From the IMG/VR virus record IMGVR_UViG_3300013108_000147: DNA of 20,000 bases; one strand, 5' to 3'. Positions 156 through 16,293 of the stretch are shown here, in pieces. The notes below the pieces were generated by a model that was not told the origin of the DNA, ran no database searches, and saw nothing but the letters and a program-made list of their open reading frames with translations. The position numbers and the translations under genes were made by a program. Each line of letters opens with the position of its first letter. Within the stretch, counting starts at the first letter, position 1. The DNA comes from an uncultured virus (IMG/VR IMGVR_UViG_3300013108_000147) (lineage: Duplodnaviria > Heunggongvirae > Uroviricota > Caudoviricetes > Crassvirales).

Positions 156-172
156 TACGTATTTTGTTTTAC

Positions 173-204
173 GCAATATACGAAAAATATATCGGAAAAC
201 CAAA
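173..204 (-). promoter_or_regulatory. Bacteroidota-type -33/-7 promoter variant TTTG-N20-TATATTGC
   Basis: Minus strand TTTG-GTTTTCCGATATATTTTTCG-TATATTGC; same geometry recurs at 16033, 18108 and 18861. Confidence 0.7.
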
Positions 205-205
205 T

Positions 206-568
206 CTATTTACCCTCTAGCCTCTTCGTAATCCTAGCTTGTAGTAAAATCCTATCGTAATTAGTAGGCTTGTAATCTTTGTACAACTCTTTAGGTAGTC
301 CGTCAAAAGACCTGCCGTAATACTCTACATTAAAACCTCTATCTTTACACTCTCTGTAAAGAGTTTCATACCTTCTCCTCAGGTACTTAAGTTTATCATA
401 AAAGAATTTAACGTGACCTGTACCTAGTTTAAACTCACTAGGTTGGTTGTCTAAGCTGTATCTGCCCTTCCTTATGCAGTTGGGTATACGCTTTATCTCT
501 CTGTGTTCGGCTATCAACATCTTGTTGTTTAATTCCGACGCTCTAATTCCTACGTTTATCCTAGTCAT
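206..568 (-). CDS. denV: Pyrimidine dimer DNA glycosylase / T4 endonuclease V
   Basis: N-terminal MTRIN (catalytic Thr2), AEHREIKR (catalytic Glu/Arg), FKLGTGHVKFFYDKL and ECKDRGF closely match T4 DenV. Confidence 0.95.
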   Translation of the reverse strand: MTRINVGIRASELNNKMLIAEHREIKRIPNCIRKGRYSLDNQPSEFKLGTGHVKFFYDKLKYLRRRYETLYRECKDRGFNVEYYGRSFDGLPKELYKDYKPTNYDRILLQARITKRLEGK

Positions 569-703
569 CTATATAGACCTAAATCTTCTGTTACTGTTCC
601 AGTCTTGCCTCTTAGCTTTGCCTAGAATAGCTTTTTTAGAAACACGCTTGTTAACGTCTTCTCTAGCCTCGTTCATCTGAGGGTTTCCGTTTTGGTTTTT
701 CAT
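569..703 (-). CDS. Small basic hypothetical protein (44 aa, MKNQNGNPQMNEARED...)
   Basis: Manually translated; exactly fills the gap between flanking co-oriented genes. Confidence 0.6.
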   Translation of the reverse strand: MKNQNGNPQMNEAREDVNKRVSKKAILGKAKRQDWNSNRRFRSI

Positions 704-705
704 GT

Positions 706-1083
706 TTAAAGTTTTTTAATAGTTGCGTTATTCCATTTACCTATTGGCATGTCTTCGTTTATTAAGATGTCTATTCTCTTACTAAACCTTTTGTTCATCT
801 TGTCCATGACAGTGTACACACCGTCATATTTAGTACCGCTAAGGTAAACCTTAGTCCCTTTAGGGTACTTCGCAAGTAAATCCCTTGACACGGCTATAAT
901 CTTGTGCTTGTAGGGATTGTTCAAGTCTAATTCAAACATGAAAGCTGTGTGCTTTGGGTCTGAGTTAGTCTGCTCTTCAACAGCGTTATACACTGTACAA
1001 ACTACCTGCTCTTGTGCTGATAGTGAAACAAATGTAGTAAATAAAAATAACACTACAAAATATTTTCTAAACTTTTTTTTCAT
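706..1083 (-). CDS. Secreted 3D-domain (RlpA-like double-psi barrel) peptidoglycan-active protein
   Basis: Signal peptide, then TVYN...IIAVSRDLL...GTKVY...YTVMD...RIDIL, the 3D/MltA-like Asp motifs. Confidence 0.8.
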   Translation of the reverse strand: MKKKFRKYFVVLFLFTTFVSLSAQEQVVCTVYNAVEEQTNSDPKHTAFMFELDLNNPYKHKIIAVSRDLLAKYPKGTKVYLSGTKYDGVYTVMDKMNKRFSKRIDILINEDMPIGKWNNATIKKL

Positions 1084-1093
1084 AATTTAAACT

Positions 1094-1342
1094 TTAATCT
1101 TCTATTCTAAATGTTATTAGTCCGTCTTTAGCAAAAGGGATTCCGTACACAGTGTAATTTGTCATAGCTTCAACTTCGTTTATTAAGTCTAGGAAATGGT
1201 AACCCGTATTTTTTGGTATAGGGTATTTAAACTTATCTATACCTGCTTTAGCTCTTTGTTCTGCTATCGTGATTATAGTATTTACATGTGTTTTATAATT
1301 TACAGCTCTTTTCGTTTTACTAACTTTTATTTCCATAATCAT
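1094..1342 (-). CDS. Hypothetical protein
   Basis: ORF track; tight packing in leftward operon (start may be ATG at 1336). Confidence 0.7.
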   Translation of the reverse strand: MIMEIKVSKTKRAVNYKTHVNTIITIAEQRAKAGIDKFKYPIPKNTGYHFLDLINEVEAMTNYTVYGIPFAKDGLITFRIED

Positions 1343-1498
1343 TTATCTAGATGTTAATGCCCATATAACAAGGTAAGGTATGAGTCCTACCACAAAGATA
1401 AATAATAGTCTCCAAAATATGGGGTCTATATTAGTGTAATCTCCTAATCCCTGGCATACGCCACCTACGTAGCCGTCTCTTCTTTTAAATTTTCTCAT
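1343..1498 (-). CDS. pspC: PspC (phage shock protein C) domain membrane protein, 51 aa
   Basis: Not in ORF track. Manual translation MRKFKRRDGYVGGVCQGLGDYTNIDPIFWRLLFIFVVGLIPYLVIWALTSR matches the PspC pattern GVC.Gl..Y..iDp...Rl.f....Y...W. Confidence 0.85.
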   Translation of the reverse strand: MRKFKRRDGYVGGVCQGLGDYTNIDPIFWRLLFIFVVGLIPYLVIWALTSR

Positions 1499-1500
1499 AA

Positions 1501-1830
1501 TTATCTATTTGTATAATAAAATTGATTTCCATCCTCATCTGTAAACATCTTAGATGGTAGTTTAAACTCGCAAGGAACATCTACTAACTCTTCTTCTGTT
1601 CTTACGCCATTGTTTGATAATGTTTCACAAGCACCGTCTACTGCATTTGGATTGTTGTTTAATACATTGATGTATGCGTTGTAATTACTATAGGTCTTTG
1701 TCTGACCATTTAAACATAAAGTCCAAGATTGATTTTTACCACCTACATAAACTTTTTTTGCCTCTTGTGTACATTCGTTCTCGCAATTAAACATTGCTAA
1801 TGTTACTAATAATACTAATACTTTTTTCAT
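1501..1830 (-). CDS. Putative lipoprotein
   Basis: From ATG at 1830: MKKVLVLLVTLAMFNC, a signal peptide II-like sequence ending in Cys. Confidence 0.65.
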   Translation of the reverse strand: MKKVLVLLVTLAMFNCENECTQEAKKVYVGGKNQSWTLCLNGQTKTYSNYNAYINVLNNNPNAVDGACETLSNNGVRTEEELVDVPCEFKLPSKMFTDEDGNQFYYTNR

Positions 1831-1832
1831 TT

Positions 1833-2039
1833 TTACTTGGTTTTTAAATTTATATACCAACCACTATTCATTTCTTCGTTTAATCTATCTTCGCCTTTCT
1901 TTGTAAAGAATTTTTTCTCAAAATCTCCAAAAGTGTGGTAGTCTTTTAACTTGTCAATACATTCTTTTACTGACTCTCCGCTTGTGTAAGTTTCACGATT
2001 TCCGCAGTCGCTTACAATTTTTAATTGATATTTTGCCAT
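1833..2039 (-). CDS. Hypothetical protein
   Basis: ORF track; AT-rich leader, operon packing. Confidence 0.7.
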   Translation of the reverse strand: MAKYQLKIVSDCGNRETYTSGESVKECIDKLKDYHTFGDFEKKFFTKKGEDRLNEEMNSGWYINLKTK

Positions 2040-2056
2040 TTCTATTGGTTTTTAAT

Positions 2057-2242
2057 TTAAAGTTTTACTAATTTTTCCATGACCTCCATTCTGTTGTCCC
2101 AATTGTAGAAACAGAACTTAATGAAGGAGTTTCTGTGTTGCATAGCGTCAGCTTTCTTGAGGAAGGCGTCTATATGCTTTTCATCAGGTGTATAGTTTAA
2201 CTTGTCACACTGATGTATAAAATCGTACATTAATCCTAACAT
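2057..2242 (-). CDS. Hypothetical protein
   Basis: ORF track; operon packing. Confidence 0.65.
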   Translation of the reverse strand: MLGLMYDFIHQCDKLNYTPDEKHIDAFLKKADAMQHRNSFIKFCFYNWDNRMEVMEKLVKL

Positions 2243-2249
2243 AAATTAT

Positions 2250-2405
2250 TTATTTTTCTTCAACATTCGTTAAGTGGTCATACAATAAGTTCATTTGATT
2301 TTTAAAAGATAGAGGTTTTTTTACACACTCGTATCTGCTATACTTGTTATAATAGTAATTTAAGTAGTCTTGAATTACTTTTTTTTCTTTTGGTGTGAGT
2401 TTCAT
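2250..2405 (-). CDS. Hypothetical protein (51 aa, MKLTPKEKKVIQDYLNYYY...)
   Basis: Manually translated; fills intergenic gap. Confidence 0.6.
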   Translation of the reverse strand: MKLTPKEKKVIQDYLNYYYNKYSRYECVKKPLSFKNQMNLLYDHLTNVEEK

Positions 2406-2426
2406 AATATTCACTTTTAAGATTAG

Positions 2427-2726
2427 TTAAAGCTCTCTAATGATTCTCATTTTCTGAGCTAGAACCCAAGTGCCTCCTTGAGACTCGGGTCTATTATAAA
2501 GTTCGTAGTCTTTTACCTCTACTTCAACCCATACTCTACCCTTCTCGGATAGGTGTGGTGCACTCTTCTCTAGGGTACAGTGCCAACCTTTTCTAGGTGC
2601 AAAACCCTTTTTAGGGTGAAACTCTGCATCTATCCAAACGTTTATCGGCACTCTACTTCTCTGATTTATGAACAACGGAGATAAGCTGCCGTCTTTCATC
2701 TTTCTAATTAGCTTGTATGCTTTCAT
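2427..2726 (-). CDS. Conserved-looking phage hypothetical protein
   Basis: ORF track; motif-rich (AYKL...LSPLFIN...KGFAPRKGWH...APHLS...SQGGTW). Confidence 0.75.
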   Translation of the reverse strand: MKAYKLIRKMKDGSLSPLFINQRSRVPINVWIDAEFHPKKGFAPRKGWHCTLEKSAPHLSEKGRVWVEVEVKDYELYNRPESQGGTWVLAQKMRIIREL

Positions 2727-2727
2727 T

Positions 2728-2913
2728 CTAATCTAATTGGTTTAATAATCCTCTTACAATATCTATCTGTTTTTTCAAGTAATCATCTGCGTCAGAAGGT
2801 TCTCTTTCTGATAATGATATTAATAGGTCTTTAAGAGCCCTCTTCCTATGTTCTAGGGACACCTTAACTATACTAGCTGATTCATCATTCAGCACTATGA
2901 TTTTCTGTGACAT
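2728..2913 (-). CDS. Hypothetical protein
   Basis: ORF track; abuts neighbours. Confidence 0.65.
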   Translation of the reverse strand: MSQKIIVLNDESASIVKVSLEHRKRALKDLLISLSEREPSDADDYLKKQIDIVRGLLNQLD

Positions 2914-2919
2914 GTCTGC

Positions 2920-3795
2920 TTAATTATATTTTTTGTTATACCAAGCTAACTTGTTTAAATCTAGCTTAGCGTTATTAGACTTCATGCTTCCTCCGTTTAT
3001 AAACAGTTTGATTGCTTTTTCTTTGTTTATAATGTTATTGGATTTGTTGTCTTCCTTAGGTGACCAACCTAGTCTAAGTATGTAGTTGAGTAGTGCGTCA
3101 TTACTGATGTTGCTTAAGTCTATCTCATCGGAATCTCTCTTAGACAACTTCTTTCCTGAACTGTGGCATACTAAACCTACGTGTGTAAATTTAGGTAAAT
3201 CTTTTTCAATTACAAAACTTTCGTTCAATAATTTCCAAATTAATGTTTGTTTATACGTATTAGATATGTGGTCTACTCCGCGAACTATCCACGTTACATC
3301 TTCATCGTAGTCGTCTACTGTAGATGCAAAGTTGTATGCCGGTGAGCCGTCAGACTTCATTATAACTTGTTCTGAGGCGTACCCTGCAATTTGGTCGTTA
3401 GCTTTCTTTAAACCTGTCAAAGTATCTGTCCAACTACAAGCGTCAACTTTAGTGGTTCCGTCGTAAAGTTCGTAACCTTTATTAAGTCTTATACATCCGT
3501 CATCTTCGATAGCCATACCTAATTCTACAAGTTGATTAGCTACTTCTCTATATCTGCCAAACCTCTCAGACTGCTTGAAAGTCTTGTCGTAGTCTAGACC
3601 AAGCCGTGATAGTGAATCAAATATGGGTTGTATAAGTTCCTCTCTACTACGTGTTAAGTCAGTGTCATCAACACGGACTATAAACTTAGAGTTTGTGTCT
3701 TGCTTAGATATAAGCCAATTGTGGTAAGCTGTTCTAAGTGTACCTATGTGTAACATACCAGTAGGTGATGGTGCTATTCTAACTATTTCTGCCAT
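2920..3795 (-). CDS. Glutamyl-tRNA synthetase catalytic-domain-only protein (GluRS/GluQ-RS-like, 291 aa)
   Basis: RIAPSPTGMLHIG (HIGH), RVDDTD, QSER, YNFASTVDD, IVRGVDH, KKLSKRD (KMSKS), NYILRLGWS, LDLNKLAWYN, then stop; the C-terminal anticodon-binding domains are absent. Confidence 0.92.
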   Translation of the reverse strand: MAEIVRIAPSPTGMLHIGTLRTAYHNWLISKQDTNSKFIVRVDDTDLTRSREELIQPIFDSLSRLGLDYDKTFKQSERFGRYREVANQLVELGMAIEDDGCIRLNKGYELYDGTTKVDACSWTDTLTGLKKANDQIAGYASEQVIMKSDGSPAYNFASTVDDYDEDVTWIVRGVDHISNTYKQTLIWKLLNESFVIEKDLPKFTHVGLVCHSSGKKLSKRDSDEIDLSNISNDALLNYILRLGWSPKEDNKSNNIINKEKAIKLFINGGSMKSNNAKLDLNKLAWYNKKYN

Positions 3796-3799
3796 TGTT

Positions 3800-4177
3800 T
3801 TAAAGTATTATTAATGTGTCGTATAAACTGTTTTGTTCTTCTTTTGATAGAGAGTTCATAAAGTATTTGATATCTGATATATCTTCTAGCGTCTCTATAG
3901 CGCTTCTGACGTGGTGATTCGGGTCGTACACCTCTTTGAATAAAGATATAGCTTTGTTAACACTCGTTATACCCTCATCTAATTTAAGATGTTTGCCTAT
4001 GCTTTTATTGTTCATAAGCATTTGGTCGTAATATAAATCCTCTACCCAAAGGTAGTTGTGGATTATCATAAGAAATCTTTGCGCCTTTTTCGCGTCTTTC
4101 ACGTGGCTTTTATAACCTAGAAGTCTTATGTATCTTCTAAGAGCCTTTTGTCTATTTCTAATATCTTCTCTTGTCAT
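3800..4177 (-). CDS. Hypothetical protein
   Basis: ORF track; operon packing. Confidence 0.7.
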   Translation of the reverse strand: MTREDIRNRQKALRRYIRLLGYKSHVKDAKKAQRFLMIIHNYLWVEDLYYDQMLMNNKSIGKHLKLDEGITSVNKAISLFKEVYDPNHHVRSAIETLEDISDIKYFMNSLSKEEQNSLYDTLIIL

Positions 4178-4262
4178 TATTTCTGTTTTATTTCTTCAAA
4201 ATGTATTTTATGGTAGCGACATTCGTGTCGTTAGCATCGGCTTCAATTTTTATACAGAGCCG

Positions 4263-4460
4263 TTACCACCCATAAGAGTTGTACATTTTTACTATATCCT
4301 CTCTTGTTATAGTTGTGTCTTCCATAAATTCACCATAACCAAACATTTTGTGTTCATAGTGAAATTTTTGTGACTTAGATAATTTATTCCACCACTTAAT
4401 AGCTTTATTACGTGTGGTAACACCACCTAAATTTAATTTATTCTCTTCGTTCATAAACAT
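4263..4460 (-). CDS. Cassette-associated hypothetical protein
   Basis: ORF track; starts inside attC-like element 4414-4482; its TAA stop lies in the GTTA core at 4262. Confidence 0.65.
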   Translation of the reverse strand: MFMNEENKLNLGGVTTRNKAIKWWNKLSKSQKFHYEHKMFGYGEFMEDTTITREDIVKMYNSYGW

Positions 4461-4486
4461 AATTTTAGCTTAACCGTTGTAAGTAA

Positions 4487-4780
4487 TTAAAGGTTCATTT
4501 CTTTTATTTTCATATAAACCATCATTAGTTCAAACAAACTATAACTTGTTTTCTTATAAAGGTATATATTTTCTCCTTGTACGCTTACATACTTTTCACA
4601 CCAATCATCAAAGGTCAGTTCCTTTTTGCTCTTTAACTCCGTACAACAATGTGTATAATTAATAGCTTCTATATCGTTCATTAAACAAGCTACTGTTTTA
4701 ATTGTTTTTTTGTCTGCATCAGCTTTTTCTATGTAAAAATCTATTACTCTTTGCAATATCTGTTTCTTATAATTATCCAT
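4487..4780 (-). CDS. Cassette-associated hypothetical protein
   Basis: ORF track; N-terminal half is encoded in the loop of attC-like element 4641-4835 and reads through the arm as INYTHCC. Confidence 0.65.
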   Translation of the reverse strand: MDNYKKQILQRVIDFYIEKADADKKTIKTVACLMNDIEAINYTHCCTELKSKKELTFDDWCEKYVSVQGENIYLYKKTSYSLFELMMVYMKIKEMNL

Positions 4781-4829
4781 TTTTATTATTTTTAGTTATT
4801 ATTCAAGCTACTAATCATACACTCGTCCG

Positions 4830-5018
4830 TTATGCACCATTACGCAAACTCTTACCTTGCTCTTTCGCCAAAGTTTTTAGTGTTTCCTTTTTTATTAAAA
4901 TACCCTTACAAGGCATTGTTCTGCAAATTGTTTCACAGCCTTCTCTTTCCAATAAATCTAAACCGCATTTAGTGCAAGGTATCCTACCAAGTTCATTGTA
5001 AGTATCTACTACATCCAT
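4830..5018 (-). CDS. Cassette-associated small Cys-rich protein (CxxC...CxxxC)
   Basis: ORF track; stop TAA in GTTA core at 4829. Confidence 0.6.
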   Translation of the reverse strand: MDVVDTYNELGRIPCTKCGLDLLEREGCETICRTMPCKGILIKKETLKTLAKEQGKSLRNGA

Positions 5019-5078
5019 TTTTTACAATTTAAAATTAACGGTGCATAACACCATATAAAATTCATTTCGTTCCTCCCG

Positions 5079-5288
5079 TTAGCCACAATTAACAGGTTGC
5101 TCTTTTGCCATTGTAGCGTTTTCTAAAATACTTATAGCTTGGTTTAGTTCTGAGATAGCATCTAAATCAGCATCAGTATCGGGGCAAGGTGCATCTATCT
5201 TACAGTTTCTTTTTATAAAACTATTTTCTATAAACGTATCCTTTGCTTTTTCTCGTTGTTCTTTTAGTTGTTGAATAATTCTTTCCAT
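5079..5288 (-). CDS. Cassette-associated hypothetical protein (MERIIQQLKEQ...)
   Basis: ORF track gives 5357 as the longest start; ATG at 5288 lies inside the cassette; stop in GTTA core at 5078. Confidence 0.6.
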   Translation of the reverse strand: MERIIQQLKEQREKAKDTFIENSFIKRNCKIDAPCPDTDADLDAISELNQAISILENATMAKEQPVNCG

Positions 5289-5399
5289 AATTAAATTAAC
5301 TGTGGCTAACACAAAAGATAGTGAATAGCCGATTAAACATTTGTTTTTCATAGCCAAGTTTAAGGTGTCGGCTACTCACCATATTCAAGCACGTTGTAG

Positions 5400-5612
5400 T
5401 TAATGTTTTTTACGAAACTTTCGCCATTTAATTTTAATCCATTCTACTAACACAATCACACCAAAGGCAAGTATTAATATCCCAAATATTGATAAACCTA
5501 TTACGTCTTTCCAATTCCAAAACATTGTTGTATCGTTACCGCAAGAGGTAAAAAACACTAACAACAACATTGTATATAGTGCATAGCTTGTTTTTGTTCT
5601 TAATCGTTTCAT
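5400..5612 (-). CDS. Cassette-associated membrane lipoprotein
   Basis: LLLVFFTSC lipobox plus a second TM helix and basic tail; starts inside attC-like element 5562-5692. Confidence 0.65.
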   Translation of the reverse strand: MKRLRTKTSYALYTMLLLVFFTSCGNDTTMFWNWKDVIGLSIFGILILAFGVIVLVEWIKIKWRKFRKKH

Positions 5613-5698
5613 TTTGCTTTTTATTTAAGTTATTTATAAATCATTATTTCGTGCTATAAGGTCGCTACGACACCATACACTAAGCGTTGTGTGTAATG

Positions 5699-6085
5699 CT
5701 ATACTTGCTTGTTAATTTCCTTAAAACACAATATACACTCAGGGTATTGTCTTCTACTATTAAAACTATAAAAACCGCCTTCCATATATTGTTTCCACAA
5801 TTCACTTTTTCTTTTAATTTCTAAAACATCTACCAATAAAAATTTATTAGGATTTAATTTTACAAAATCCCAAGATTTTTTATCTAAAAATCCTTTAAAA
5901 TCACCACTTTGTTTTAATGAGTTGTAATAATTACCTTCATTAATAGTGATAAAAGTTCCTCCGTATTCTCTTGTAAAAGTGTTAAGTTTTACTTTGTTTC
6001 CTTTTGATATTACAACTTGTTTTAAATCTTCTTTTGTCAGTTTTTCAGTATAAAATCTTTTTCTAAGTTTTGAAAGTTCACTCAT
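5699..6085 (-). CDS. Cassette-associated hypothetical protein
   Basis: ORF track; wholly contained in cassette 5686-6128. Confidence 0.7.
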   Translation of the reverse strand: MSELSKLRKRFYTEKLTKEDLKQVVISKGNKVKLNTFTREYGGTFITINEGNYYNSLKQSGDFKGFLDKKSWDFVKLNPNKFLLVDVLEIKRKSELWKQYMEGGFYSFNSRRQYPECILCFKEINKQV

Positions 6086-6177
6086 TATTTCTATATATCA
6101 TTAATTAATAATCCGCACTACACACAACAATATGTATAGTGCATTTTCGTGCCTCAAACGACACCATACACTCAAAG

Positions 6178-6450
6178 TTAGCCACAATTAAATGCCTTTA
6201 ACGTCTCTTCTATCATTGTTTGCCCTACGTAAGTATGTGTACTTTCATTAAATCTGTCTGCCAAATCATTTAACAGTTCACGTTGTTGGCTAACATCAGA
6301 TAAAACAAATTCTATGTCATTGTCATTTATCCGATGGTCTGACCAAGTAATCGCACTTTGAAACAAATCATTCCAATCTGTTGTGCTCTTGTCTATTGTT
6401 ACATCACTGCCTTCAATTTGTAGGTATATTTTTTTAGGTATATTTTTCAT
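6178..6450 (-). CDS. Cassette-associated hypothetical protein (MKNIPKKIYLQI...)
   Basis: Likely ATG at 6450 inside loop of attC-like 6288-6483; reads through the arm as FVLSDVSQQRELL; stop in GTTA core at 6177. Confidence 0.65.
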   Translation of the reverse strand: MKNIPKKIYLQIEGSDVTIDKSTTDWNDLFQSAITWSDHRINDNDIEFVLSDVSQQRELLNDLADRFNESTHTYVGQTMIEETLKAFNCG

Positions 6451-6488
6451 AATCAAACTTGTTTTATCTGTGATACGTTGTATCACAT

Positions 6489-6722
6489 TTATGGTTGTTT
6501 AAATACATTGTCTGCCCACTTAATATATTTCAAAGCATAATCAACACCTGTTAATATATAAGCTAAGTTTAGAGGTACTGCCAACACAATAAACACGATT
6601 GATAAGACAAGGTTTCCTACTGCATATCTTAAACGTGCTACAACACCGTATAAACTTAATTTAGGTTTCTTTTCTAATCCTAAACTTTTAATCATATATT
6701 CTGCGTCTATTTCTTTTTTCAT
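6489..6722 (-). CDS. Cassette-associated membrane protein
   Basis: ORF track; hydrophobic helix; crosses the half-site at 6635-6660 as LSLYGVVAR. Confidence 0.65.
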   Translation of the reverse strand: MKKEIDAEYMIKSLGLEKKPKLSLYGVVARLRYAVGNLVLSIVFIVLAVPLNLAYILTGVDYALKYIKWADNVFKQP

Positions 6723-6742
6723 AATTTCTGTTATTTAATTCA

Positions 6743-7156
6743 TTACACATCAATCAACTCGAATGATTTAGCATTTCTTGTTTTATCGTTCCAATATTTT
6801 TTGTTTAGTTCGTAAGCATCAGACATTCTCAAACCCATAGTTTCAGCAAGTATGTAGAATGGTTTAGTTAAGTAGTTAAATGCTAATGTCATTTCTGTTG
6901 CATCTCCTTCAAAAATTACTTCTTTTTTGTCGTTTAAAATTTGTTTCATATCACTTCGTTGGCTAACAATAGATACACTCAAATTTTTAACCTTAGCTTC
7001 GAGCCATTCTACGTATTCATCACAAAAACCATCTTCATAAGGTGTTTGTCCTGCGTAATCCTGTCTAACAGCCATCACACCATATCCGTTTTCTTTTTTA
7101 AACTTTTCTCTTAAATCCATATTTACTTCTTTTTTGTCGTTTAAAATTTGTTTCAT
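6743..7156 (-). CDS. Chimeric hypothetical protein with duplicated N-terminus MKQILNDKKEV
   Basis: ORF track; 34-bp perfect direct repeat in frame. Confidence 0.65.
   Translation of the reverse strand: MKQILNDKKEVNMDLREKFKKENGYGVMAVRQDYAGQTPYEDGFCDEYVEWLEAKVKNLSVSIVSQRSDMKQILNDKKEVIFEGDATEMTLAFNYLTKPFYILAETMGLRMSDAYELNKKYWNDKTRNAKSFELIDV
6916..7156. repeat. 34-bp perfect direct repeat (6916-6949 and 7123-7156)
   Basis: TTACTTCTTTTTTGTCGTTTAAAATTTGTTTCAT twice, 207 bp apart. Confidence 0.95.
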
Positions 7157-7323
7157 CGCTCAATGTGGTTAAAAATTAACTTCATCACCCAAGCATTTTC
7201 AAACTCATACATACCACAAACTAAACGCGCTTCTTCTGCTGTTTCGTAGTAGTTAATTTTTCCGTTTTCGTCTTTCATATAGTCCATATTTCTAAGGTCT
7301 ATAATTACATATTTGTTTTCCAT
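7153..7323 (-). CDS. Hypothetical protein (56 aa, MENKYVIIDLRNMDYMKDENG...)
   Basis: Manually translated; ATGA overlap with downstream ORF. Confidence 0.7.
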   Translation of the reverse strand: MENKYVIIDLRNMDYMKDENGKINYYETAEEARLVCGMYEFENAWVMKLIFNHIER

Positions 7324-7328
7324 TCCGT

Positions 7329-7529
7329 TCATCTTGTTAGTTTTGAGTTAACTACATCGATAATAACCCAATCGTGAGCACCCTCTTTTTTAAATTCTTC
7401 TAACTCTCTTTCAGAGTCTAAGTAAAAGAAAATGTCATCGTCATCTTCTTCTATGTCTCCGATTTTTAGAACCATATCGTCTTGTATGTTTCCGTCATCT
7501 AACCATTTTATCGTTGCTATAAATCTCAT
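7329..7529 (-). CDS. Acidic hypothetical protein
   Basis: ORF track; probable ATG at 7529 (MRFIATIKW). Confidence 0.7.
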   Translation of the reverse strand: MRFIATIKWLDDGNIQDDMVLKIGDIEEDDDDIFFYLDSERELEEFKKEGAHDWVIIDVVNSKLTR

Positions 7530-7607
7530 TTTAATCCCTTTTAATTTGTAAAACAATTTAATTCCACCCTTACACTTTGAGTGAGGGCTGATAGTGAATC
7601 GCTAATA

Positions 7608-7958
7608 TTAAACATTAAAACGATTATATTCTTGAATAAATTCTACTACTGCCTTATATGTATCTTCTATAGTCCATATGTTTTCGTACCCCTCTGTAAG
7701 TTTTGAGAATGTTTCATCAAATGGTGTGTTATAGTAATCATCCCCTATCTTTTGGACTACTGGCATCAGCCAATCCCAAGAGGTGTGGTATTTTAAATCA
7801 CTAATTCTTTTAACGGCATAAGTACCACTTGGCAAACCCTCACTTCCTTTTACGCAAAGGATTCTTGATTCTCCTATTGTTTGTGGCAGGTTAATTAAAT
7901 TTGGTACACTTGATGGTATACCACTCATAAATTCTGCAATAAGTTTATTGTATTCCAT
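7608..7958 (-). CDS. Phage hypothetical protein (NKLIAEFM...YHTSWDWLMPVV motif; possibly ABA-sandwich-like)
   Basis: ORF track; motif recalled from Bacteroidota phage proteins, family assignment tentative. Confidence 0.7.
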   Translation of the reverse strand: MEYNKLIAEFMSGIPSSVPNLINLPQTIGESRILCVKGSEGLPSGTYAVKRISDLKYHTSWDWLMPVVQKIGDDYYNTPFDETFSKLTEGYENIWTIEDTYKAVVEFIQEYNRFNV

Positions 7959-7992
7959 GATTGTAATTTTTAAGTCTTAGGTTTTTTCGTTT

Positions 7993-8020
7993 AAAATAAA
8001 GCCCCCTATCTCTAGGGGGC
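7993..8020 (-). terminator. Rho-independent terminator downstream of peptidase
   Basis: GCCCCCTA-4nt-TAGGGGGC stem (8001-8020) followed by TTTATTTT on minus strand. Confidence 0.75.
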
Positions 8021-8060
8021 AGGTTAACAATTAAAACAAATAAAACAAATAAACAATATT

Positions 8061-9137
8061 TTAAAACGGTAAGTCTCCGTGTTCGTCAGTATCTTCTAGT
8101 AGCTCTTCTTCGTAAAAACCTTCGAAACTGTCTTTTGTCCAATCTTCTACTTCGTCATCAGATATGTAGTCTTGACAACCGTGGCACCAATGCATTTGGA
8201 CTGTTTCGTCATACTCTAGCTCTCCGTATGTGCCACAAGACATACAGACTAAGTCGTCAGTATTACTAACATTGTTGCTTTCGGTGTCTACGAAGTCGTC
8301 ATCATAGTAGTGGTCAAAGTATCTTGAACCTCCGCCGTATTTGTGGTATCTAGACGTTGCCCATTGTGATAAGACCTCTCTGTCTGCAGTTTTGATAGTG
8401 AACTTTGTGCCACCTAAGTTGTCTATAACATCTTGGACAAAGTCTGCAGTTCTAAACACTTCGCTTATGATTATGTACTCATTGTCAGTGTGGGGGTCGT
8501 AGTATCCGCAAGACATATTTGCTACAGATACTTCTAAGCCATTCTTGGTTAACTGATATACATCTGTCAATCCTCCGTCAGCCTCTACCCTATCGTATTG
8601 TGCTAAGTAGGGTGCTACTGCTTGAGAGAATTCATCGCTATATAGTTTAGTGCTATAGATTGAAGATACAAAGTCTGCGTAACCTCGTCTATCACACTGA
8701 AGGACAAACCCTACATCTGAGAAGAAGGACATAAGAGCCACGCTACTGCCTACACAACCTACTTCCTCGTCTCTGAAGAACGCAACCTTTATGTTGTCAG
8801 TGTTGATAAGTGCTTGAAGGGCTACAAATATACCTACTTTATCGTCACCACCTATACCTACTCTCTCGTATTTATCGTTGATAGCGTAGAGTGCATCTTT
8901 ATGGCGTTTAACATGAAATTCTTTCTCTATATCATGTACTGTGTCTGTGTGAGCTACTACGCAAGGGTAAGCGTCTGACTCACCTTTTGTTGCGTAGATG
9001 TTACCCTTGTTTTTACAAACCCTTACACCGGGGATAGTTGATATATAGTCTATTAAAAACTTGTTCATTTGTTTGGTATTGTAGCTAGTAGTTTGTACTG
9101 CCATTACCGATTTTAAATCTTTTAATCTGCTTTCCAT
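8061..9137 (-). CDS. M20/M28-type Zn-dependent peptidase/amidohydrolase with C-terminal Zn-ribbon and acidic tail
   Basis: AHTDTV, GIGGDDKVG, DEEVGCVGS, QCDRRG and YDPHTDNE metal-ligand motifs; CMSC...CHGC; ends DEHGDLPF. Confidence 0.85.
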   Translation of the reverse strand: MESRLKDLKSVMAVQTTSYNTKQMNKFLIDYISTIPGVRVCKNKGNIYATKGESDAYPCVVAHTDTVHDIEKEFHVKRHKDALYAINDKYERVGIGGDDKVGIFVALQALINTDNIKVAFFRDEEVGCVGSSVALMSFFSDVGFVLQCDRRGYADFVSSIYSTKLYSDEFSQAVAPYLAQYDRVEADGGLTDVYQLTKNGLEVSVANMSCGYYDPHTDNEYIIISEVFRTADFVQDVIDNLGGTKFTIKTADREVLSQWATSRYHKYGGGSRYFDHYYDDDFVDTESNNVSNTDDLVCMSCGTYGELEYDETVQMHWCHGCQDYISDDEVEDWTKDSFEGFYEEELLEDTDEHGDLPF

Positions 9138-9160
9138 TGTTTGTTTATTTAATGTTTTAA

Positions 9161-11764
9161 TTATTCTGATTCTTTCATCTCCTCTAAGTACTCTTCATAG
9201 TACTCAACTAACACGTACTCATCGGCATCGGTAACATGATAATCAGAGTGCTCTAAGCTAAACTCTGTACCCGACTGAGCGCATGTTCCCATATCGTCAC
9301 AATCCCTAACATAACCGCCGTTATAATCTACGTAAATAGCGTGAGATTCGTGTATGTACTCTCCGTCAAGCAACTCTACTGCGTCATCGTTCAATATATA
9401 CTCACCTGAATATTCGCAGTAAGTAGCGTTATCTATGTGTGTATTTATTCCTCTACTATCTATGTAAACAGCGTCTCCGCTATATATGTATCTATGATCC
9501 CAATCGTCGTACTCTCTTTCTTCCAAGTTACTGTGCTCACCTTCAGTAGACCTAAGCTCTGTTACCTCGTCACGGCTACTCAAGTACCCCGACAATTCTC
9601 CCGAATCTATATTAAGGTAGTAGAATGTGTCTAAGTAAGGGAATCCATCGTCATCACTTGGTATATGGTCAAGCATAATACTTATGTCTTCAGAGCTCTC
9701 TGTTTCATTTCCGTCAGGAGACACAAAGTTACACGTTGAAGAGTCTTGATGTTCTTTACACCAAAAACCTTTGTCTCTTGCAAAACTCTTGAAAGCGCTG
9801 ATAGTGGCATCAGTACCATATATTCTGTCTAGCCACTTATTATCCCAAAGAAGTGCCCTACCTTTAAGTAGGTCATCCTTAGTTAGAATAACCAATTTAA
9901 CTTGGTTAGGGTTCTCTGTGTATATATCTAACCAAGGTAAACATTGTTCGTGTCTCATGCATGACGAGCCTAGTGTACCTACGTTTTCATTGTGGTGATT
10001 AGAGCCGTCATACCAATGTCTTATATCCTCTCCTGTAACTATACTGAAATTTCCTACGCTATACTCGCCTTTGATAGAGTTAACTAACTTCTCAATCTCG
10101 TGGTCAGTAAACTTCTTTCTAGGTACTTGCTCGCTAAGTACTTTCCTAATCAACTTGCCGTACTTTGACGATTGTCTGCCTTTAGAGCTCCATTTGTAAC
10201 CGTCTGTTATCACAGTCTCCTTGCCTGCAGGCGTGTAAGTCATAGATTGGTCTGCTTTAATCGTGATGTTTCTAGTACTGTCTTTGTAGTAGCCTAAAGA
10301 ACTAATCTTAGTAAGAGTTTTAGCTACAGAGTTTTTATCTGCAAACTTCATTAGAACATTAAATAAACTTTCAGAAAACAATTGTGTCTCTAAGTCAGAG
10401 TTATATCTTGGCGTCATGCTATACAACTTATGTCTTTTACGGAATATTAGTCTTTGACTCCAATTAGATTCTCTAATATTCCTTTCAAAATTAGCTATGT
10501 ATCTCAACGTATCGTTATACTTAGCCGCGTCTTCAGAGTTAGCTCTCCTTATAACTATTTCAGTGTTATCAACCGTAAACGTGTTTCCAAAGTTCGTGCC
10601 GGAGTACCTTATATATTCGCCCGATTGTTTATCAACTACTACTAACTTTCTTGTTTTCCAATACTTAACTAAGCGTTCTTTCCCGTATTTTACTACGTAG
10701 AGTTCTCCCGACCTAAGACTTGTGACTGATAGTGAATCTTCTTTTGTATTACCATTAAGTAAAGCGTAATTAAATGCTCCCGTATCCGCAATGGTAGTTA
10801 TTTCGTAAAGTGCGTGCCCTTTGTAATTAACGAGTAAGTCTAGCACAGTGTTGTAATAACCAACAACGTATTCACCCTCAGACGCAACATAGCCTTCGTA
10901 TACTCTGATTACGGTTATTCCCCCTCCATTCCCAAAACTGTTCTTAATATATAGGGTTGACTTACCTTCTTCAAACAAATCTCTGCTGATAGCTGAGATT
11001 GATTCCTCGCTAAGCTCTACGGGTACGAAACTATCTTCTGTAAATGTTTCGCCTTTATCATGCATTGCAACCCCAGTTGCTTGTCGAAGCGCTTCGTTTA
11101 AATTGAACATTACTGCCTCTACCTCGTACATGTTTCTAACTTTAACAGTGGCTATATTAGGTGCAAAGTGACTATGCTTCTTTTCAATCACTAAAGAGTT
11201 ACCTAACATAAGCCTGCTATTAATCATGTACTTAAAATTTGGTAAAATGTATTGTAGAGTCTCTAAGCTACCGTAGAGTCTTCTTGAGTCTTCTACCATT
11301 ACACCTAGCACACCTTCGCCGTCTATAAGTAGTGTAAGAGACTCATACCCATATTCGTTGTCAGTCATACTACGTATAGCGTCAAGAAGATAAGGTATGT
11401 GTTCACCTAAAGAGTAGTGCAGTGAGGTAAACGCTGTTACAAACTTACTCAAGTCTCTATCTTTTGTACTACTAAAACTTGACGTTGGTGAGCCTTCATA
11501 ATAGCTGAATTCATGTTTTAGAGCCGATTGTAAAAGCTGCTTAGGTATTTCGTCTGACAAACGCAATAGTGGTATATACCCCACATTTAAACAACGCTTA
11601 ACAGATGATACGTTTAAACTATGTATCACAGTATCCGAATGCCTTGCTGTTCTAAACTCTTGCAAGTTAGAGTTGGAGTCTGTTAAAAAGGGTACTGTTA
11701 GTTCCTCGTGGCTTTTGTTCTTGTCTGAATCCGTCAGTAATTCTTCGTGAAAAAGTCTCTTCAT
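9161..11764 (-). CDS. Large phage protein of unknown function (867 aa)
   Basis: Long ORF; C-terminal half has SCMR...GRALLW...WLDRIY...FPYLDTF motifs and acidic Tyr/Cys repeats. Confidence 0.85.
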   Translation of the reverse strand: MKRLFHEELLTDSDKNKSHEELTVPFLTDSNSNLQEFRTARHSDTVIHSLNVSSVKRCLNVGYIPLLRLSDEIPKQLLQSALKHEFSYYEGSPTSSFSSTKDRDLSKFVTAFTSLHYSLGEHIPYLLDAIRSMTDNEYGYESLTLLIDGEGVLGVMVEDSRRLYGSLETLQYILPNFKYMINSRLMLGNSLVIEKKHSHFAPNIATVKVRNMYEVEAVMFNLNEALRQATGVAMHDKGETFTEDSFVPVELSEESISAISRDLFEEGKSTLYIKNSFGNGGGITVIRVYEGYVASEGEYVVGYYNTVLDLLVNYKGHALYEITTIADTGAFNYALLNGNTKEDSLSVTSLRSGELYVVKYGKERLVKYWKTRKLVVVDKQSGEYIRYSGTNFGNTFTVDNTEIVIRRANSEDAAKYNDTLRYIANFERNIRESNWSQRLIFRKRHKLYSMTPRYNSDLETQLFSESLFNVLMKFADKNSVAKTLTKISSLGYYKDSTRNITIKADQSMTYTPAGKETVITDGYKWSSKGRQSSKYGKLIRKVLSEQVPRKKFTDHEIEKLVNSIKGEYSVGNFSIVTGEDIRHWYDGSNHHNENVGTLGSSCMRHEQCLPWLDIYTENPNQVKLVILTKDDLLKGRALLWDNKWLDRIYGTDATISAFKSFARDKGFWCKEHQDSSTCNFVSPDGNETESSEDISIMLDHIPSDDDGFPYLDTFYYLNIDSGELSGYLSSRDEVTELRSTEGEHSNLEEREYDDWDHRYIYSGDAVYIDSRGINTHIDNATYCEYSGEYILNDDAVELLDGEYIHESHAIYVDYNGGYVRDCDDMGTCAQSGTEFSLEHSDYHVTDADEYVLVEYYEEYLEEMKESE

Positions 11765-11815
11765 TTTTTATTGTTTTAATTGTATTTAAGTTTTACTTCT
11801 AGTTCTGATAGTGAA

Positions 11816-11980
11816 TTAACCGTATATGCCGAACTGATAAGTTTGTTCAGTTGTTAGGAGGGTGTACAAAATTAATAAGGCGCACCCCGCTATAAAGCCT
11901 ACTACGCAATAAGATATGCGCATGGTTAATTCTGTAGGCTCTCCGTTGTTGTCTACAAACTTGTTTAAAAGTGTTTTCAT
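11816..11980 (-). CDS. Small membrane protein
   Basis: Probable ATG at 11980 (MKTLLNKF); one TM helix. Confidence 0.6.
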   Translation of the reverse strand: MKTLLNKFVDNNGEPTELTMRISYCVVGFIAGCALLILYTLLTTEQTYQFGIYG

Positions 11981-12089
11981 ACCGATAATTTTAATATGTA
12001 AGTTAATAAGCACAAAAGGAGAAATGCTGCTGCAAATCTCCCTAATGCTATAATGTTATCTTTTGTTATGATGTCTTTGATAAACTCTC

Positions 12090-12329
12090 TCATACTTTTG
12101 GTACGTATTGAGTTATATTTCTATCGTCTACATAAATGTCTAGTGGCACATGCCCTGTAACTTCAACCATAACGATTTCTACTGCGTCGCTAGGTATGTC
12201 TACAACTGTTTCAAATTCTGCAGTTGCAAGGTCGTTTGCGCAAACATTGTTAATAAAATGATTTCCACCGTGGTCTACTCGGTTCTTGTTTCCGTTTGCG
12301 TCTGTCCAAACTTGATTAAAATATCCCAT
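12090..12329 (-). CDS. Hypothetical protein
   Basis: ORF track; AT-rich leader. Confidence 0.7.
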   Translation of the reverse strand: MGYFNQVWTDANGNKNRVDHGGNHFINNVCANDLATAEFETVVDIPSDAVEIVMVEVTGHVPLDIYVDDRNITQYVPKV

Positions 12330-12358
12330 TTTCTATTTGATTTTAAGGGTTAAACTTG

Positions 12359-12438
12359 TACCCGCAGTGTGATTCGAACACACGTCTAAACATCTGTGTA
12401 TCATAGATGAATTGTCCTAACCTCTAGACGATGCGGGC
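12359..12438 (-). tRNA. tRNA-Glu-scaffold tRNA-like RNA with aberrant 25-nt anticodon arm (copy 1)
   Basis: GCCCGCA/TGCGGGT acceptor stem, TC-GTCTAGAGGTTAGGAC-A D arm, AGAC variable loop, GTGTG-TTCGAAT-CACAC T arm; no canonical anticodon loop, no encoded CCA. Confidence 0.8.
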
Positions 12439-12451
12439 GCACTTTAATTAT

Positions 12452-12883
12452 TTATATTAAGCTATTACGTAGCTTATCTATAAACGATTCAACCTCATTG
12501 GATTGTTTTTCTATTTCGTCACTCCATACCTTTGCTAGATGAATAGAAAGGATTTGATTTTCTTTTAAAACACGTTCTTTTGTCCAAATATTTTCAGTAC
12601 CAAACCAAACAGTGTCCCATCCTACTACCCACATGTCCTCCATGTCTGCAACCTCTTCCCATCCTATAATATCGTCTGAGTTTTTAGAGAATGTAAGATT
12701 AACATGAGCATGGTGTTCTAACTTCTTATTTATCTCACCATATCCTAAACCGAAGTACGGATGTCTTCTTGGTAGTGCAACATATCCGTTTCCCCAACCT
12801 CCTAACCCTTGTGGAGTCCAAGTGTTTTCTTTTAAAAATGCTTTCATGATATTTATATTAAATTTGTTTATTATCTCAGCCAT
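12452..12883 (-). CDS. Conserved phage hypothetical protein (NGYVALP..HP...LTF...WVVGWD family)
   Basis: ORF track; motif pattern recalled from phage proteins. Confidence 0.75.
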   Translation of the reverse strand: MAEIINKFNINIMKAFLKENTWTPQGLGGWGNGYVALPRRHPYFGLGYGEINKKLEHHAHVNLTFSKNSDDIIGWEEVADMEDMWVVGWDTVWFGTENIWTKERVLKENQILSIHLAKVWSDEIEKQSNEVESFIDKLRNSLI

Positions 12884-13113
12884 CTGTTCAATTTTAAAGC
12901 TATTTTATATCTTAAAGTATTGCCGTGTTTTGCACGATTGATAGTGAACGCTATCTTATAGATTTGATAACCCACGACCATAGCAGTTAAGCCTACAGTT
13001 TTAACTACTACAAATGTTTGTAGGTTAAAGCCATTAGTTTGTTCTGCTAACACTAAGCATAGCCCTGCCATTATAAGCAAAGCTGATATGCTAAAAGTTA
13101 ATATGTGTCTCAT
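12871..13113 (-). CDS. Two-TM membrane protein
   Basis: ORF track; two hydrophobic helices, basic C-terminus. Confidence 0.7.
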   Translation of the reverse strand: MRHILTFSISALLIMAGLCLVLAEQTNGFNLQTFVVVKTVGLTAMVVGYQIYKIAFTINRAKHGNTLRYKIALKLNRWLR

Positions 13114-13115
13114 GA

Positions 13116-13268
13116 TTATATTAGTTTTAATTGCCTTTGCATTTCTTTATAGCGCATAATATCCCACGCTTTTTTATAGCCTATGTTATGTAATTGCATT
13201 AATTTATGCACCATTTTTTCTTCGATAGACTGCACTCGCATACGTCTACGTTTTGGTTTATTTGCCAT
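13116..13268 (-). CDS. Small basic protein (50 aa, MANKPKRRRMRVQSIEEK...)
   Basis: Manually translated; AT-rich leader, abuts next gene. Confidence 0.6.
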   Translation of the reverse strand: MANKPKRRRMRVQSIEEKMVHKLMQLHNIGYKKAWDIMRYKEMQRQLKLI

Positions 13269-13291
13269 TTTTATTTAATTTAATTGATTTG

Positions 13292-13371
13292 CACCCATAG
13301 ACAGATTCGAACTGCCGTCTATACACCGCGACGATTTTAGTGTATTGTCCTAGCCACTAGACGATATGGGC
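13292..13371 (-). tRNA. tRNA-Glu-scaffold tRNA-like RNA with aberrant 25-nt anticodon arm (copy 2)
   Basis: GCCCATA/TATGGGT acceptor stem, TC-GTCTAGTGGCTAGGAC-A D arm, ATACAC-13nt-GTGTAT arm, AGAC, GGCAG-TTCGAAT-CTGTC T arm. Confidence 0.8.
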
Positions 13372-13375
13372 ATGA

Positions 13376-13408
13376 TATAAAAAGCCCTACACTTTTACAT
13401 GTAGGGCT
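13376..13408 (-). terminator. Terminator-like hairpin between Rho-N gene and tRNA-like copy 2
   Basis: AGCCCTACA-8nt-TGTAGGGCT (13383-13408) running into a T-run on minus strand. Confidence 0.6.
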
Positions 13409-13438
13409 GTGAGGGATATGGATTGAGGCAAAAAAGGT

Positions 13439-13861
13439 TTATGCCGTTACTAAAGCTATTAATTCAGCTTTTTTCATCTTTGAAAATTTGGTTTTACCTT
13501 GTTTTTTAGCTACCTCTTTAAGCTGCGCTACGTTCATCTTCTCAATTGGAGTTAATGTAGGTGCAGTATCAGATAAATTCGCAGCGCTTTTAATAGCCTT
13601 GTGTATTGCTTGTAACACAAAGAATGGGCTGTAATTTCCTGCCTTTGAAACTCGCACGTTCTCCTTGAATGTAGCGTAAACATCGTTGTTTTCTCTAATC
13701 TCACTCAATATTTGAATGTATTGCGTGCTAAGCTCTATTTCATCTCTAAAAAGCCACAGTATTTTTACTGCACCTCCTAATGATTTGCACTCTCGTTTTA
13801 ACGCCTTGTTAGTGTTTAAAACGTTCATTTTGTAAGCTGAAATTTTGTTTGATTTTGCCAT
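13439..13861 (-). CDS. Protein with C-terminal Rho termination factor N-terminal (HeH-like) nucleic-acid-binding domain
   Basis: IEKMNVAQLKEVAKKQGKTKFSKMKKAELIALV matches the Rho_N consensus. Confidence 0.8.
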   Translation of the reverse strand: MAKSNKISAYKMNVLNTNKALKRECKSLGGAVKILWLFRDEIELSTQYIQILSEIRENNDVYATFKENVRVSKAGNYSPFFVLQAIHKAIKSAANLSDTAPTLTPIEKMNVAQLKEVAKKQGKTKFSKMKKAELIALVTA

Positions 13862-13903
13862 AATTTAAAAATTTAATTATTGTTTATTGATTTTAATTAA
13901 TAG

Positions 13904-14604: not shown

Positions 14605-14608
14605 AGTA

Positions 14609-14616
14609 CAAACATA
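14609..14616 (-). promoter_or_regulatory. Bacteroidota -7 promoter element (TAnnTTTG) driving leftward transcription
   Basis: Minus strand TATGTTTGTACTGTTG; near-identical TATATTTGTACTGTTG at 16911 on plus strand. Confidence 0.65.
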
Positions 14617-14635
14617 CGTGGCATTTTTGACATAG

Positions 14636-15939
14636 TAAAATCCTGATAATCAAGCAGTTAGAAATTAAAGTGTTGATAATCAGACAGTTAGCTAAGTAGC
14701 TGAGTATCAAGGACTTAAGCAAAATGCCTTCTCGGTTAAAGCGCTGAGTATCAGGTAGTTAGCTTGTTTGTAATCGCCGTTTTTCCCAAACTGAAAACCT
14801 AGAGTAAAAAAAATTCAAAAAAAATTAAAAAGGGCTTATAAGTAACTGATATTCAAGTAGTTACAAGCAAAAAAAATTTTAAAATTAGCTTTAAAGTTAA
14901 AAGGTTGATAATCAAGCAGTTATAAAATCGAGTTTGTAAGTAGCTGAGTATCAATAAGTTATAAATTTAAAAAATTACGTTTGTAAGTATCTGAGAATCA
15001 AGTAGTTAGAGTAAGTAGTTGATAATGAGGCAGTTACGTTAAAGTGTTGATACTCAAGTAGTTAGATTAAAACGTAGTTAAAAGTTAAAGCGCTGAAAAT
15101 CAGGTAGTTAAGTTTTGGCTAGGTAGCAGTTAAACTAAAGTACTGATACTCAAGGGTTTAGGTACAAAGAGTGTTTGTAAGTAGCTGAGGTTCAGGCAGT
15201 TACGATTCTGGCTCATAAGGTAGATTAAAGGTAAAACGTTGATAATGAGGCAGTTACGGCTAAGTAGCTGAGTATCAGGCGCTTACACCGGCACCGAGAA
15301 TTAAATAGTCGTAACTATCTGAAAGTCAGGCAATTAGGCGTAACTATCTGAGAATCAGGCGCTTACACTGGCACCGAGACTTAAATAGGCGTAACTATCT
15401 GAGTATCAGGCGCTTACACCGGCAAGCATATTTAAGTAGTTGTAACTATCTGAGAATCAGGTAATTAGACGTAACTAATTGATAATGAGGCAGTTAGATT
15501 AACTCTTAAAGTATATGGAATTCGCGCGCGCGTAAAGAGCGTAACTATCTGAGAATGAAGCAGTTAGACGTAACTAATTGATAATGAGGCAGTTACGGTA
15601 GAGTGGGTGAATTGAGTGGGTAAATAATTGATAATGAGGCAGTTACGGGTAAGTGTTTGATAGTCAAATGATTAGAGTATAAGTAGTTAATAGTAATATA
15701 TAAGCCTGAGTATCAAGCAGTTAGAATAAAAAACCTACAATACATAACTGTTAAGCGCCTGATTGTCAAGGTGTTAAGTTTGTTAAGCTAGTGTTTAACA
15801 GATTTTACAGATACATTAGACAAAAGATGTAACTATCTGAGTATCAGCGATTTAGACTAGTGTTTTAGGGCATTTCAATAAATAAGTTATTAAAAAAGTC
15901 AAAAAATTTGCTCGTAAAAGCCTGAAAATCAAGCCCGTA
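14636..15939. repeat. Array of ~28 quasi-palindromic 25-bp repeats TAA-N5-TGA-N3-T(C/G)A-N5-TTA (IHF-consensus-like)
   Basis: Copies counted by eye from 14636 to 15915; right half fits WATCARNNNNTTR in most copies. Confidence 0.9.
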
Positions 15940-16265: not shown

Positions 16266-16293
16266 GTTTCAAATAATTTAAAGCCAAATAAGG

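Follow-up and report, generated by a model that had tools for sequence, protein, structure and literature searches.

Site-specific single-strand interruptions of phage genomes were first recognised some 50 years ago, yet what they are for has not been established (PMC3517423, PMC11780129). The mapped examples named in these papers belong to T5-like, phiKMV-like and LUZ24-like phages of Proteobacteria (PMC3517423, PMC11780129). In the account of Glukhov (2012, PMC3517423), the DNA of Pseudomonas phage tf carries 14 nicks, all on the top strand and at TACT/RTGMC; the nick word is found on that strand only, 11 of the 14 sites lie in the left half of a genome built of two convergent transcription units, and the main site of the relatives differs by one letter at similar positions, for which the authors proposed co-evolution of nickase and site. 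For Rembedalsseter, Dougherty (2025, PMC11780129) described 13 nanopore-mapped breaks on one strand at WACTRTGAC, a word enriched in 60 relatives and concentrated on one side of the genome. It falls inside coding sequences (CDSs) in 88% of cases, which equals the coding density, often at CDS starts, and for the most part, but not entirely, on the coding strand, while its function was given as unknown (PMC11780129). The consensuses quoted for T5 and phiKMV-like phages are R/GCGCRGG and CGACxxxxxCCTA/CTCCGG (PMC3517423). Here we describe the decamer TGATAGTGAA, a word with a comparable distribution in a stretch of 20,000 nucleotides (nt), hereafter the window, from an uncultured marine phage (IMG/VR record IMGVR_UViG_3300013108_000147, Crassvirales).

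The window holds seven exact copies of the decamer, all on the plus strand and none on the minus strand, against a chance expectation of 0.04 in dinucleotide shuffles, none of which (0 of 200) reached seven copies; it is the joint most frequent 10-mer of the window. With up to one mismatch allowed, ten matches are present, and all ten are again on the plus strand. From position 1 to about 14.1 kb every open reading frame (ORF) points leftward, and TTCACTATCA is the coding-strand form of the word. Five exact copies lie within ORFs, in two reading frames, and two lie between genes. The word is a non-random, strand-polarised cis signal and not a protein motif, as an earlier note made from the letters of the window had argued. 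When the 33 leftward ORFs (12,630 nt) were shuffled among synonymous codons, with proteins and codon usage kept, the mean was 0.052 copies and the maximum two, and the five copies observed in ORFs were reached in 0 of 5000 rounds. The earlier note was right about the seven exact copies, their single orientation and an expectation far below one chance copy per 20 kb. As for its near-copies, the one given at 5317 exists but starts at 5316, the one at 9799 keeps only the core, with two mismatches to the decamer, and those at 4354 and 15658 were missed. Its remark that no copies occur on the other strand stands, while the one that none occur to the right of 13 kb fails at the one-mismatch copy at 15658.

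The decamer is the window phage's version of a family-wide, one-strand, DNA-level signal. The closest homologs of the window's peptidase (43% identity) and of its 867-amino acid (aa) protein (32-36% identity) are found in the Cellulophaga phages phi38:1, phi40:1 and Calle (Pervagoviridae). An exact 40-mer scan among viral contigs gave no match to the window, and no relative came out of a locus search that used the 867-aa protein alone; 80 IMG/VR loci were collected by peptidase alignment, and further members were added by portal alignment. The core of the word, CAC(T/A)ATCA as read on the sense strand of the early genes, was followed through 12 related genomes and contigs of Flavobacteriia podophages; the Cellulophaga phages phi38:1 and Calle and Maribacter phage Panino among them have been cultured. 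The core is their commonest dispersed 8-mer, with 170 copies on the major and 12 on the minor strand; 0.6-1.6 are expected per strand, and the minor strand is at chance level. Each relative carries between 9 and 24 copies, where about one per strand is expected. Two lineage variants, CACTATCA and CACAATCA, differ by one letter. By strand, the core (as TGATAGTG, with the extended form AAACACTATCAAA) is distributed 15:1 in phi38:1, where 13 copies lie in the leftward block between 11965 and 33983, and 18:1 in Calle. The variant CACTATCA is distributed 24:2 in Panino, 13:2 in the relative G007, 13:0 in G008 and 9:0 in G013, while the core is distributed 69:1 over G002-G006 of the CACAATCA clade. 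Among the 80 peptidase loci, a dispersed one-strand word was found in eight, two from Callevirus and six with TTCACAATCA, in which one letter is changed; counted on whole contigs, TCACAATCA gave 14:0, 15:0, 10:0, 15:0 and 9:0, and controls with the reversed pattern gave 0. Only background counts were obtained in four family members (G009, G010, G011 and elemoE) and in G012 and G014-G016. Frequent k-mers of other peptidase-bearing loci were also considered as dispersed words and were rejected, as they were local arrays or start-codon contexts.

In every one of the 12 genomes and contigs, the dense early-block cluster has the major strand as its sense strand. According to simple gene calls, the 170 major-strand copies divide into 90 in sense orientation within genes, 43 antisense within genes and 37 intergenic. 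Since 43 of them are antisense, the word tracks a DNA strand and not transcription. The antisense copies are located mainly in late genes, past the convergent junction, and those of the CACAATCA clade (G002-G006), G008 and G013 have the full flanking consensus. They use one frame only, xTG-ATT-GTG-AA, a bias explained by the stop codons that arise in another frame when the word is reverse-complemented; the same explanation led us to drop the idea that they mark particular start codons of late genes (M-I-V-N). The early block is dense, with about one copy per 1-2 kb, and the remainder sparse in G002, G008, Panino, phi38:1 and Calle; density differs at least 4-fold between blocks, and only one copy is present in an 18-kb stretch of G002. 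Copies of the window, of the CACAATCA clade, of G008 and of Panino are found anywhere along a gene and in each of the three frames, mostly 200-1500 nt from the next start and with no preference for gene borders. Placement indifferent to genes is also seen in G007 and G013, while Callevirus differs. Members of one clade share the positions of their copies, while between clades the positions turn over, with the density kept. In the alignment of the 867-aa gene family, each lineage has one or two copies, in columns that differ between lineages. At one shared column the window reads A-T-I-S (ACT ATC) and its relative G005 reads I-T-I-N (ACA ATC, a CACAATCA copy), so that the Thr codon differs exactly at the letter separating the two lineage words.

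Two further observations concern the positions of the copies. In Panino (PP540027), six successive antisense copies in late genes lie at 28530, 34380, 40176, 46448, 51143 and 55765, and their five gaps of 4.6-6.3 kb look more regular than chance by eye. In the CACAATCA clade, three of ten contig ends are found 19-45 nt 3' of a copy (the start of G003 and the ends of G005 and of locus L029); such ends may be assembly breaks at mosaic or recombination junctions next to sites.

We place first, because the pattern matches that of the published, proven nick motifs point by point, the reading that the word would be the recognition site of a phage-specified, strand-specific nicking system, and we hold it tentatively, at chances somewhat short of even. 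The sequences show the copy statistics, the restriction to one strand, the crowding of copies in the early block, their disregard of frames and gene borders, the turnover at constant density and the one-letter lineage variants, while the nick itself, its position, its enzyme and its timing are inferred. The LUZ24-like (Bruynoghevirus-type) nick motif is likewise a word of 9-10 letters, present 9-24 times per genome on one strand and in one part of the genome. Like the word here, with the exception of Callevirus, it falls inside genes in about the proportion set by the coding density; it is frequently found at gene starts and largely, but not wholly, on the coding strand, it likewise spans convergent transcription units, and in relatives it shows one-letter variants at similar positions. 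Furthermore, TACTATGAC, the main site of the Pseudomonas phage relatives, and CACTATCAG have 6 of 9 letters in common, among them ACTAT, and are oriented alike with respect to the rightward left unit, a likeness of letters that may serve as a weak lead. The two systems differ in that the hosts here are Bacteroidota, the genomes measure 60-77 kb instead of about 45 kb, the word is another one and in Callevirus it is mainly intergenic, and in that the nicks are proven there, while here we have genome sequence only. Neither the word WACTRTGAC / TACTRTGMC nor the phage kinship that would place these phages within the LUZ24-like system was found. With the nicks of T5 and phiKMV-like phages, the word shares strand-specific, sequence-associated interruptions of unknown function as the proposed outcome, while their consensuses are quite different and their sites per genome fewer. 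Of the four roles suggested in the earlier note, the nick site, for which T5 was the example, has the closest published parallel, with tf and Rembedalsseter as better models than T5.

According to the scheme that we propose, the nicking activity would leave single-strand interruptions in the packaged DNA, in or beside CACT/ATCA, and these would fall on the sense (non-template) strand of the early genes. After injection, host ligase would seal them. Nicks on the early genes' non-template strand would not block the first transcription of the injected DNA, and those in the late genes could be repaired before the late genes are needed; the orientation of the word could be explained by these two properties together.

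Several observations weigh against nicking. The data are metagenome contigs, a kind of data unable to reveal nicks, and the word differs from the Pseudomonas motif. The portal search returned 87 records, all of Flavobacteriia phages and none of a Pseudomonas phage. In phylogenetic profiling, no gene combined presence in every motif-bearing genome with absence from the four motif-less family members, and no candidate nickase was found; a literature search for a phage nickase brought nothing useful. In Callevirus, 9 of 15 copies (phi38:1) and 8 of 18 (Calle) are intergenic, with about 8% of the sequence non-coding, and 8 of the 13 early-block copies of phi38:1 are found 0-21 nt upstream of an annotated ATG, so that placement there looks like that of a gene-expression signal. 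A conserved non-coding leader contains the first copy of the CACAATCA clade, and a further copy of that clade stands between a T-run and a non-coding array of GATGCGAC repeats in the early block. Finally, the window phage is the weakest follower of the one-strand rule. The IMG/VR record G001 (54.4 kb) represents the same phage, its positions 1-7719 matching window positions 12269-20000 at 98.3%, and together with the window it gives a composite map of 66.7 kb, with about 5 kb of the genome outside it. On this composite, exact 10-mers are distributed 7:2 by strand and cores 9:5. One of the opposite-strand exact copies is in the portal gene, in sense orientation, and the other one is antisense in a gene of the distal leftward block; late-region copies of this phage are sense to the late genes.

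The window phage thus fits a sense-strand rule (8 of 9 exact copies) slightly better than a one-DNA-strand rule (7 of 9), unlike its relatives. Such a distribution is what could be expected of an RNA-level signal on early transcripts, either a site of processing or decay or a site for an antitermination protein, for which the earlier note had named a Rho-N protein as the candidate reader. The Callevirus copies between cistrons and the window copy followed by a hairpin are also in line with this explanation. Nevertheless, most relatives maintain full-consensus antisense copies in their late genes, the flanks of the word show no conserved structure, and homologs of the Rho-N protein are confined to the two Callevirus loci among the eight motif-bearing ones; together with the 43 antisense copies, this makes an RNA signal, and the Rho-N protein as its reader, very improbable in our judgement.

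The same placements bear on our initial reading, in which the word would start early or delayed-early transcription, as a short promoter for an unrecognised phage polymerase or specificity factor. Transcription would then start at the A after CACTATC and give leaderless or near-leaderless messenger RNAs (mRNAs), while the antisense late-gene copies would drive antisense RNA or help to pull the DNA into the cell. The word is found mostly within the early block. According to the phi38:1 transcriptome paper, the phosphatase is an early and the primase a middle gene, and for that reason the word's range in phi38:1 (11965-33983) matches the early block as published there; the terms 'promoter' and 'motif' occur nowhere in that paper (term search). 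Besides the proximity to annotated starts in phi38:1, several lineages often have an ATG that overlaps the word or directly adjoins it (CACAATCATG, CACTATCATCATG), and the leader copy and the copy between the T-run and the array speak for a promoter as well. The first 1-1.5 kb of the early block is devoid of copies, as expected if an immediate-early product must read the signal. The window decamer also matches the T7 promoter phiOL, positions -9 to +1 of the T7 record (NC_001604), in 8 of 10 letters (TTCACTATCA against CTCACTATAA), and the T7 copies are likewise co-oriented and in part intragenic.

In contrast to T7-type promoters, only 8-12 nt (about 10, against 23) are conserved here, no T7-type polymerase gene was found, and many copies are deep in genes or antisense, so that the usual placement of such promoters, upstream of genes and co-directional with them, is not what we see. 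Most of the window's copies, and most of those in the CACAATCA clade, G008 and Panino, lie deep inside genes, 200-1500 nt from the next start and with no preference for gene ends, which speaks against a promoter. No T7-type RNA polymerase (PF00940) and no sigma70 region 2 was detected in four records (phi38:1, Calle, G002 and G001), while the T7 control scored 1e-109 for the former and the controls of the latter matched; we count these absences in favour of nicking. The giant virion proteins of 3083 and 1366 aa carry 'virion structural protein' labels only, and they show no DFDxD motif, no PDB sequence match and no polymerase match in Pfam, PHROG or PDB. The primary-sigma promoter of Bacteroidota has the consensus -33 TTG / -7 TAnnTTTG, and by inspection neither strand of the word fits these elements. 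A promoter does not fit copies scattered inside genes, antisense copies or positions that turn over while density is kept, and we now place it second, as rather unlikely though with real support. A distinctly improbable variant is that the word is a one-strand track signal of a new kind and not a nick site, namely the start site of an unrecognised phage transcription machine with no detectable T7-type or sigma-like domain, which would express leaderless early mRNAs starting at the A after CACTATC while moving one way round the genome, with the antisense copies, one every few kilobases in the oppositely oriented late genes, serving DNA entry or antisense silencing rather than gene expression.

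The presence of the word on one DNA strand throughout the genome, independently of genes, could also point to another polar DNA signal, read by a machine travelling one way round the genome, such as a Chi-like site for the host helicase-nuclease, a priming site for the lagging strand in rolling-circle replication or a site that orients a translocase. Chi sites are likewise short, over-represented and orientation-dependent. Known Chi sites are G/T-rich, and so is the complementary strand of the word (TGATAGTG / TGATTGTG); the spacing of the six antisense late-gene copies of Panino could be counted on the same side. On the other hand, the word differs from Chi sites in that the host's other phages do not share it and in that its copies crowd into a single block. 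Five other Cellulophaga baltica phages, belonging to other groups, have 0:1, 4:4, 1:6, 4:2 and 3:6 copies, which is background (controls 0-4), with no common flanks in the 1:6 case, and four family members lack the word altogether; the Chi-like signal considered in the earlier note finds no support in these counts. The uneven density, with the 18-kb stretch of G002, is unsuited to priming, and the polarity remains unchanged around either repeat array. A polar signal of this kind appears unlikely to us. The word may also be a DNA-entry signal. The search for a protein that reads the word found none. The 867-aa protein gave no Pfam, PHROG or PDB match, apart from a weak PcfJ lead from Atlas (0.80); since its homologs occur in 57 of the 80 peptidase loci, it is not specific to the word.

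Table 1. Copies of the word and associated repeat features in the window, and sites of the T-run context in related loci.
Feature	Position	Strand	Context
Exact copy (TTCACTATCA on the minus strand)	1018..1027	-	In ORF 706-1083, signal-peptide region, S-L-S
Exact copy	3607..3616	-	In truncated GluRS-like ORF 2920-3795, S-L-S
One-mismatch copy (TCATAGTGAA on the plus strand)	4354..4363	-	
One-mismatch copy (AGATAGTGAA on the plus strand)	5316..5325	-	
Exact copy	7589..7598	-	Intergenic, 32 nt ahead of the start at 7556; a short hairpin follows
Exact copy	8393..8402	-	In M20/M28-like peptidase ORF 8061-9137, F-T-I
8-letter core (CACTATCA), two mismatches to the decamer	9799..9808	-	In 867-aa ORF, A-T-I-S
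Exact copy	10727..10736	-	In 867-aa ORF 9161-11764, S-L-S; contigs of two metagenome runs stop at the edge of the copy
Exact copy	11806..11815	-	Intergenic; abuts the stop of ORF 11816-12013, 41 nt before the start of the 867-aa ORF
Exact copy	12939..12948	-	In ORF 12871-13113, F-T-I; retained in near-identical G001
One-mismatch copy (TTGACTATCA on the minus strand, TGATAGTCAA on the plus strand)	15658..15667	-	Right side of the repeat array, co-oriented with the others
Array of imperfect palindromes (about 40 units, 25-28 nt each, TAACTnCCTGAnnnTCAGnTAGTTA type)	14626..15931	.	Between divergent gene blocks
T-run / word / GATGCGAC array sites	L026:12925, L055:13114, L033:4614, L029:3940, L035:13108		CACAATCA clade

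The window is contained in four DNA metagenome runs of a single study, and the runs listed include no RNA run. The contigs of these runs gave no molecule ends; one contig of 17 kb extends 12.7 kb beyond the left end of the window. Among 40 of 165 variable places that are listed across these runs, none falls within the seven sites, which says little. Contig ends or mosaic joints adjoin the sites at 10727, 11806 and 12939, an anecdotal observation that hints at recombination junctions. The composite map begins with the leftward early block, followed by a gene-free region of 2.2 kb with the repeat array, the rightward late block, which ends in the 3083-aa virion protein, and a distal leftward block carrying GroEL.

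Every unit of the array between the divergent blocks is able to form a hairpin. The earlier note had fitted the decamer to a TGA-N3-TGA core of this array, but the fit is weak, as the decamer has 8 of 10 letters in common with the 'TGATAATGAG' unit type and only 5 of 10 with the palindromic type, and it is doubtful that the array is part of the word system. In all four metagenome runs the array is 99 nt shorter, with 15465-15563 skipped. Between the array and the first leftward gene, a stretch of about 500 nt with no ORF (14110-14640) is G+C-richer by eye and looks like structured RNA, with no match in Rfam. Arrays of GAAACTGC are found in other peptidase-bearing phages (L016, L021 and L028), at a spot similar to that of the GATGCGAC arrays in the CACAATCA clade.

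Several genes around the copies are worth recording. The early block includes two tRNA-like genes of 80 nt on the minus strand (12359-12438 and 13292-13371), which score 41 and 51 bits in Rfam and are negative in ARAGORN, and the truncated GluRS-like gene, whose 291 aa comprise the catalytic domain only. In the acidic 867-aa protein, the C-terminal 350 residues form a family with no known fold or function, which is found in 57 of the 80 peptidase-bearing phage loci and at 7-15 places per genome in uncultured megaphages of 630-735 kb. Window positions 4400-8300 represent a hypervariable region of ORFans with many alternative joints among the four runs, and a presence/absence polymorphism of 501 nt (12361-12861) takes out an ORF of 143 aa together with most of the tRNA-like gene at 12359-12438. 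The 3083-aa virion protein (G001 39101-48352, composite 51369-60620) resembles phi38:1 gp101 in its first ~700 residues only, and giant proteins at the end of the late block range from 1691 to 3083 aa across the phage family.

In the papers on Callevirus and Panino that were searched by term, no mention of the word, of nicks or of promoters was found; Panino has been sequenced before from native DNA on MinION (PMC11590407). On the reading placed first, the word would be a new member of the strand-specific, nick-associated motifs of phages. If this is true, the nick-motif signature would extend to abundant marine Flavobacteriia podophages, with a different word and in a new host phylum, and would provide an independent lineage in which to ask what nicks are for, with three cultured model lineages (phi38:1/phi40:1, Calle and Panino) and the four word-less family members as a natural comparison. 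If the word marks transcription starts instead, it would reveal an unknown transcription system in a model marine phage.

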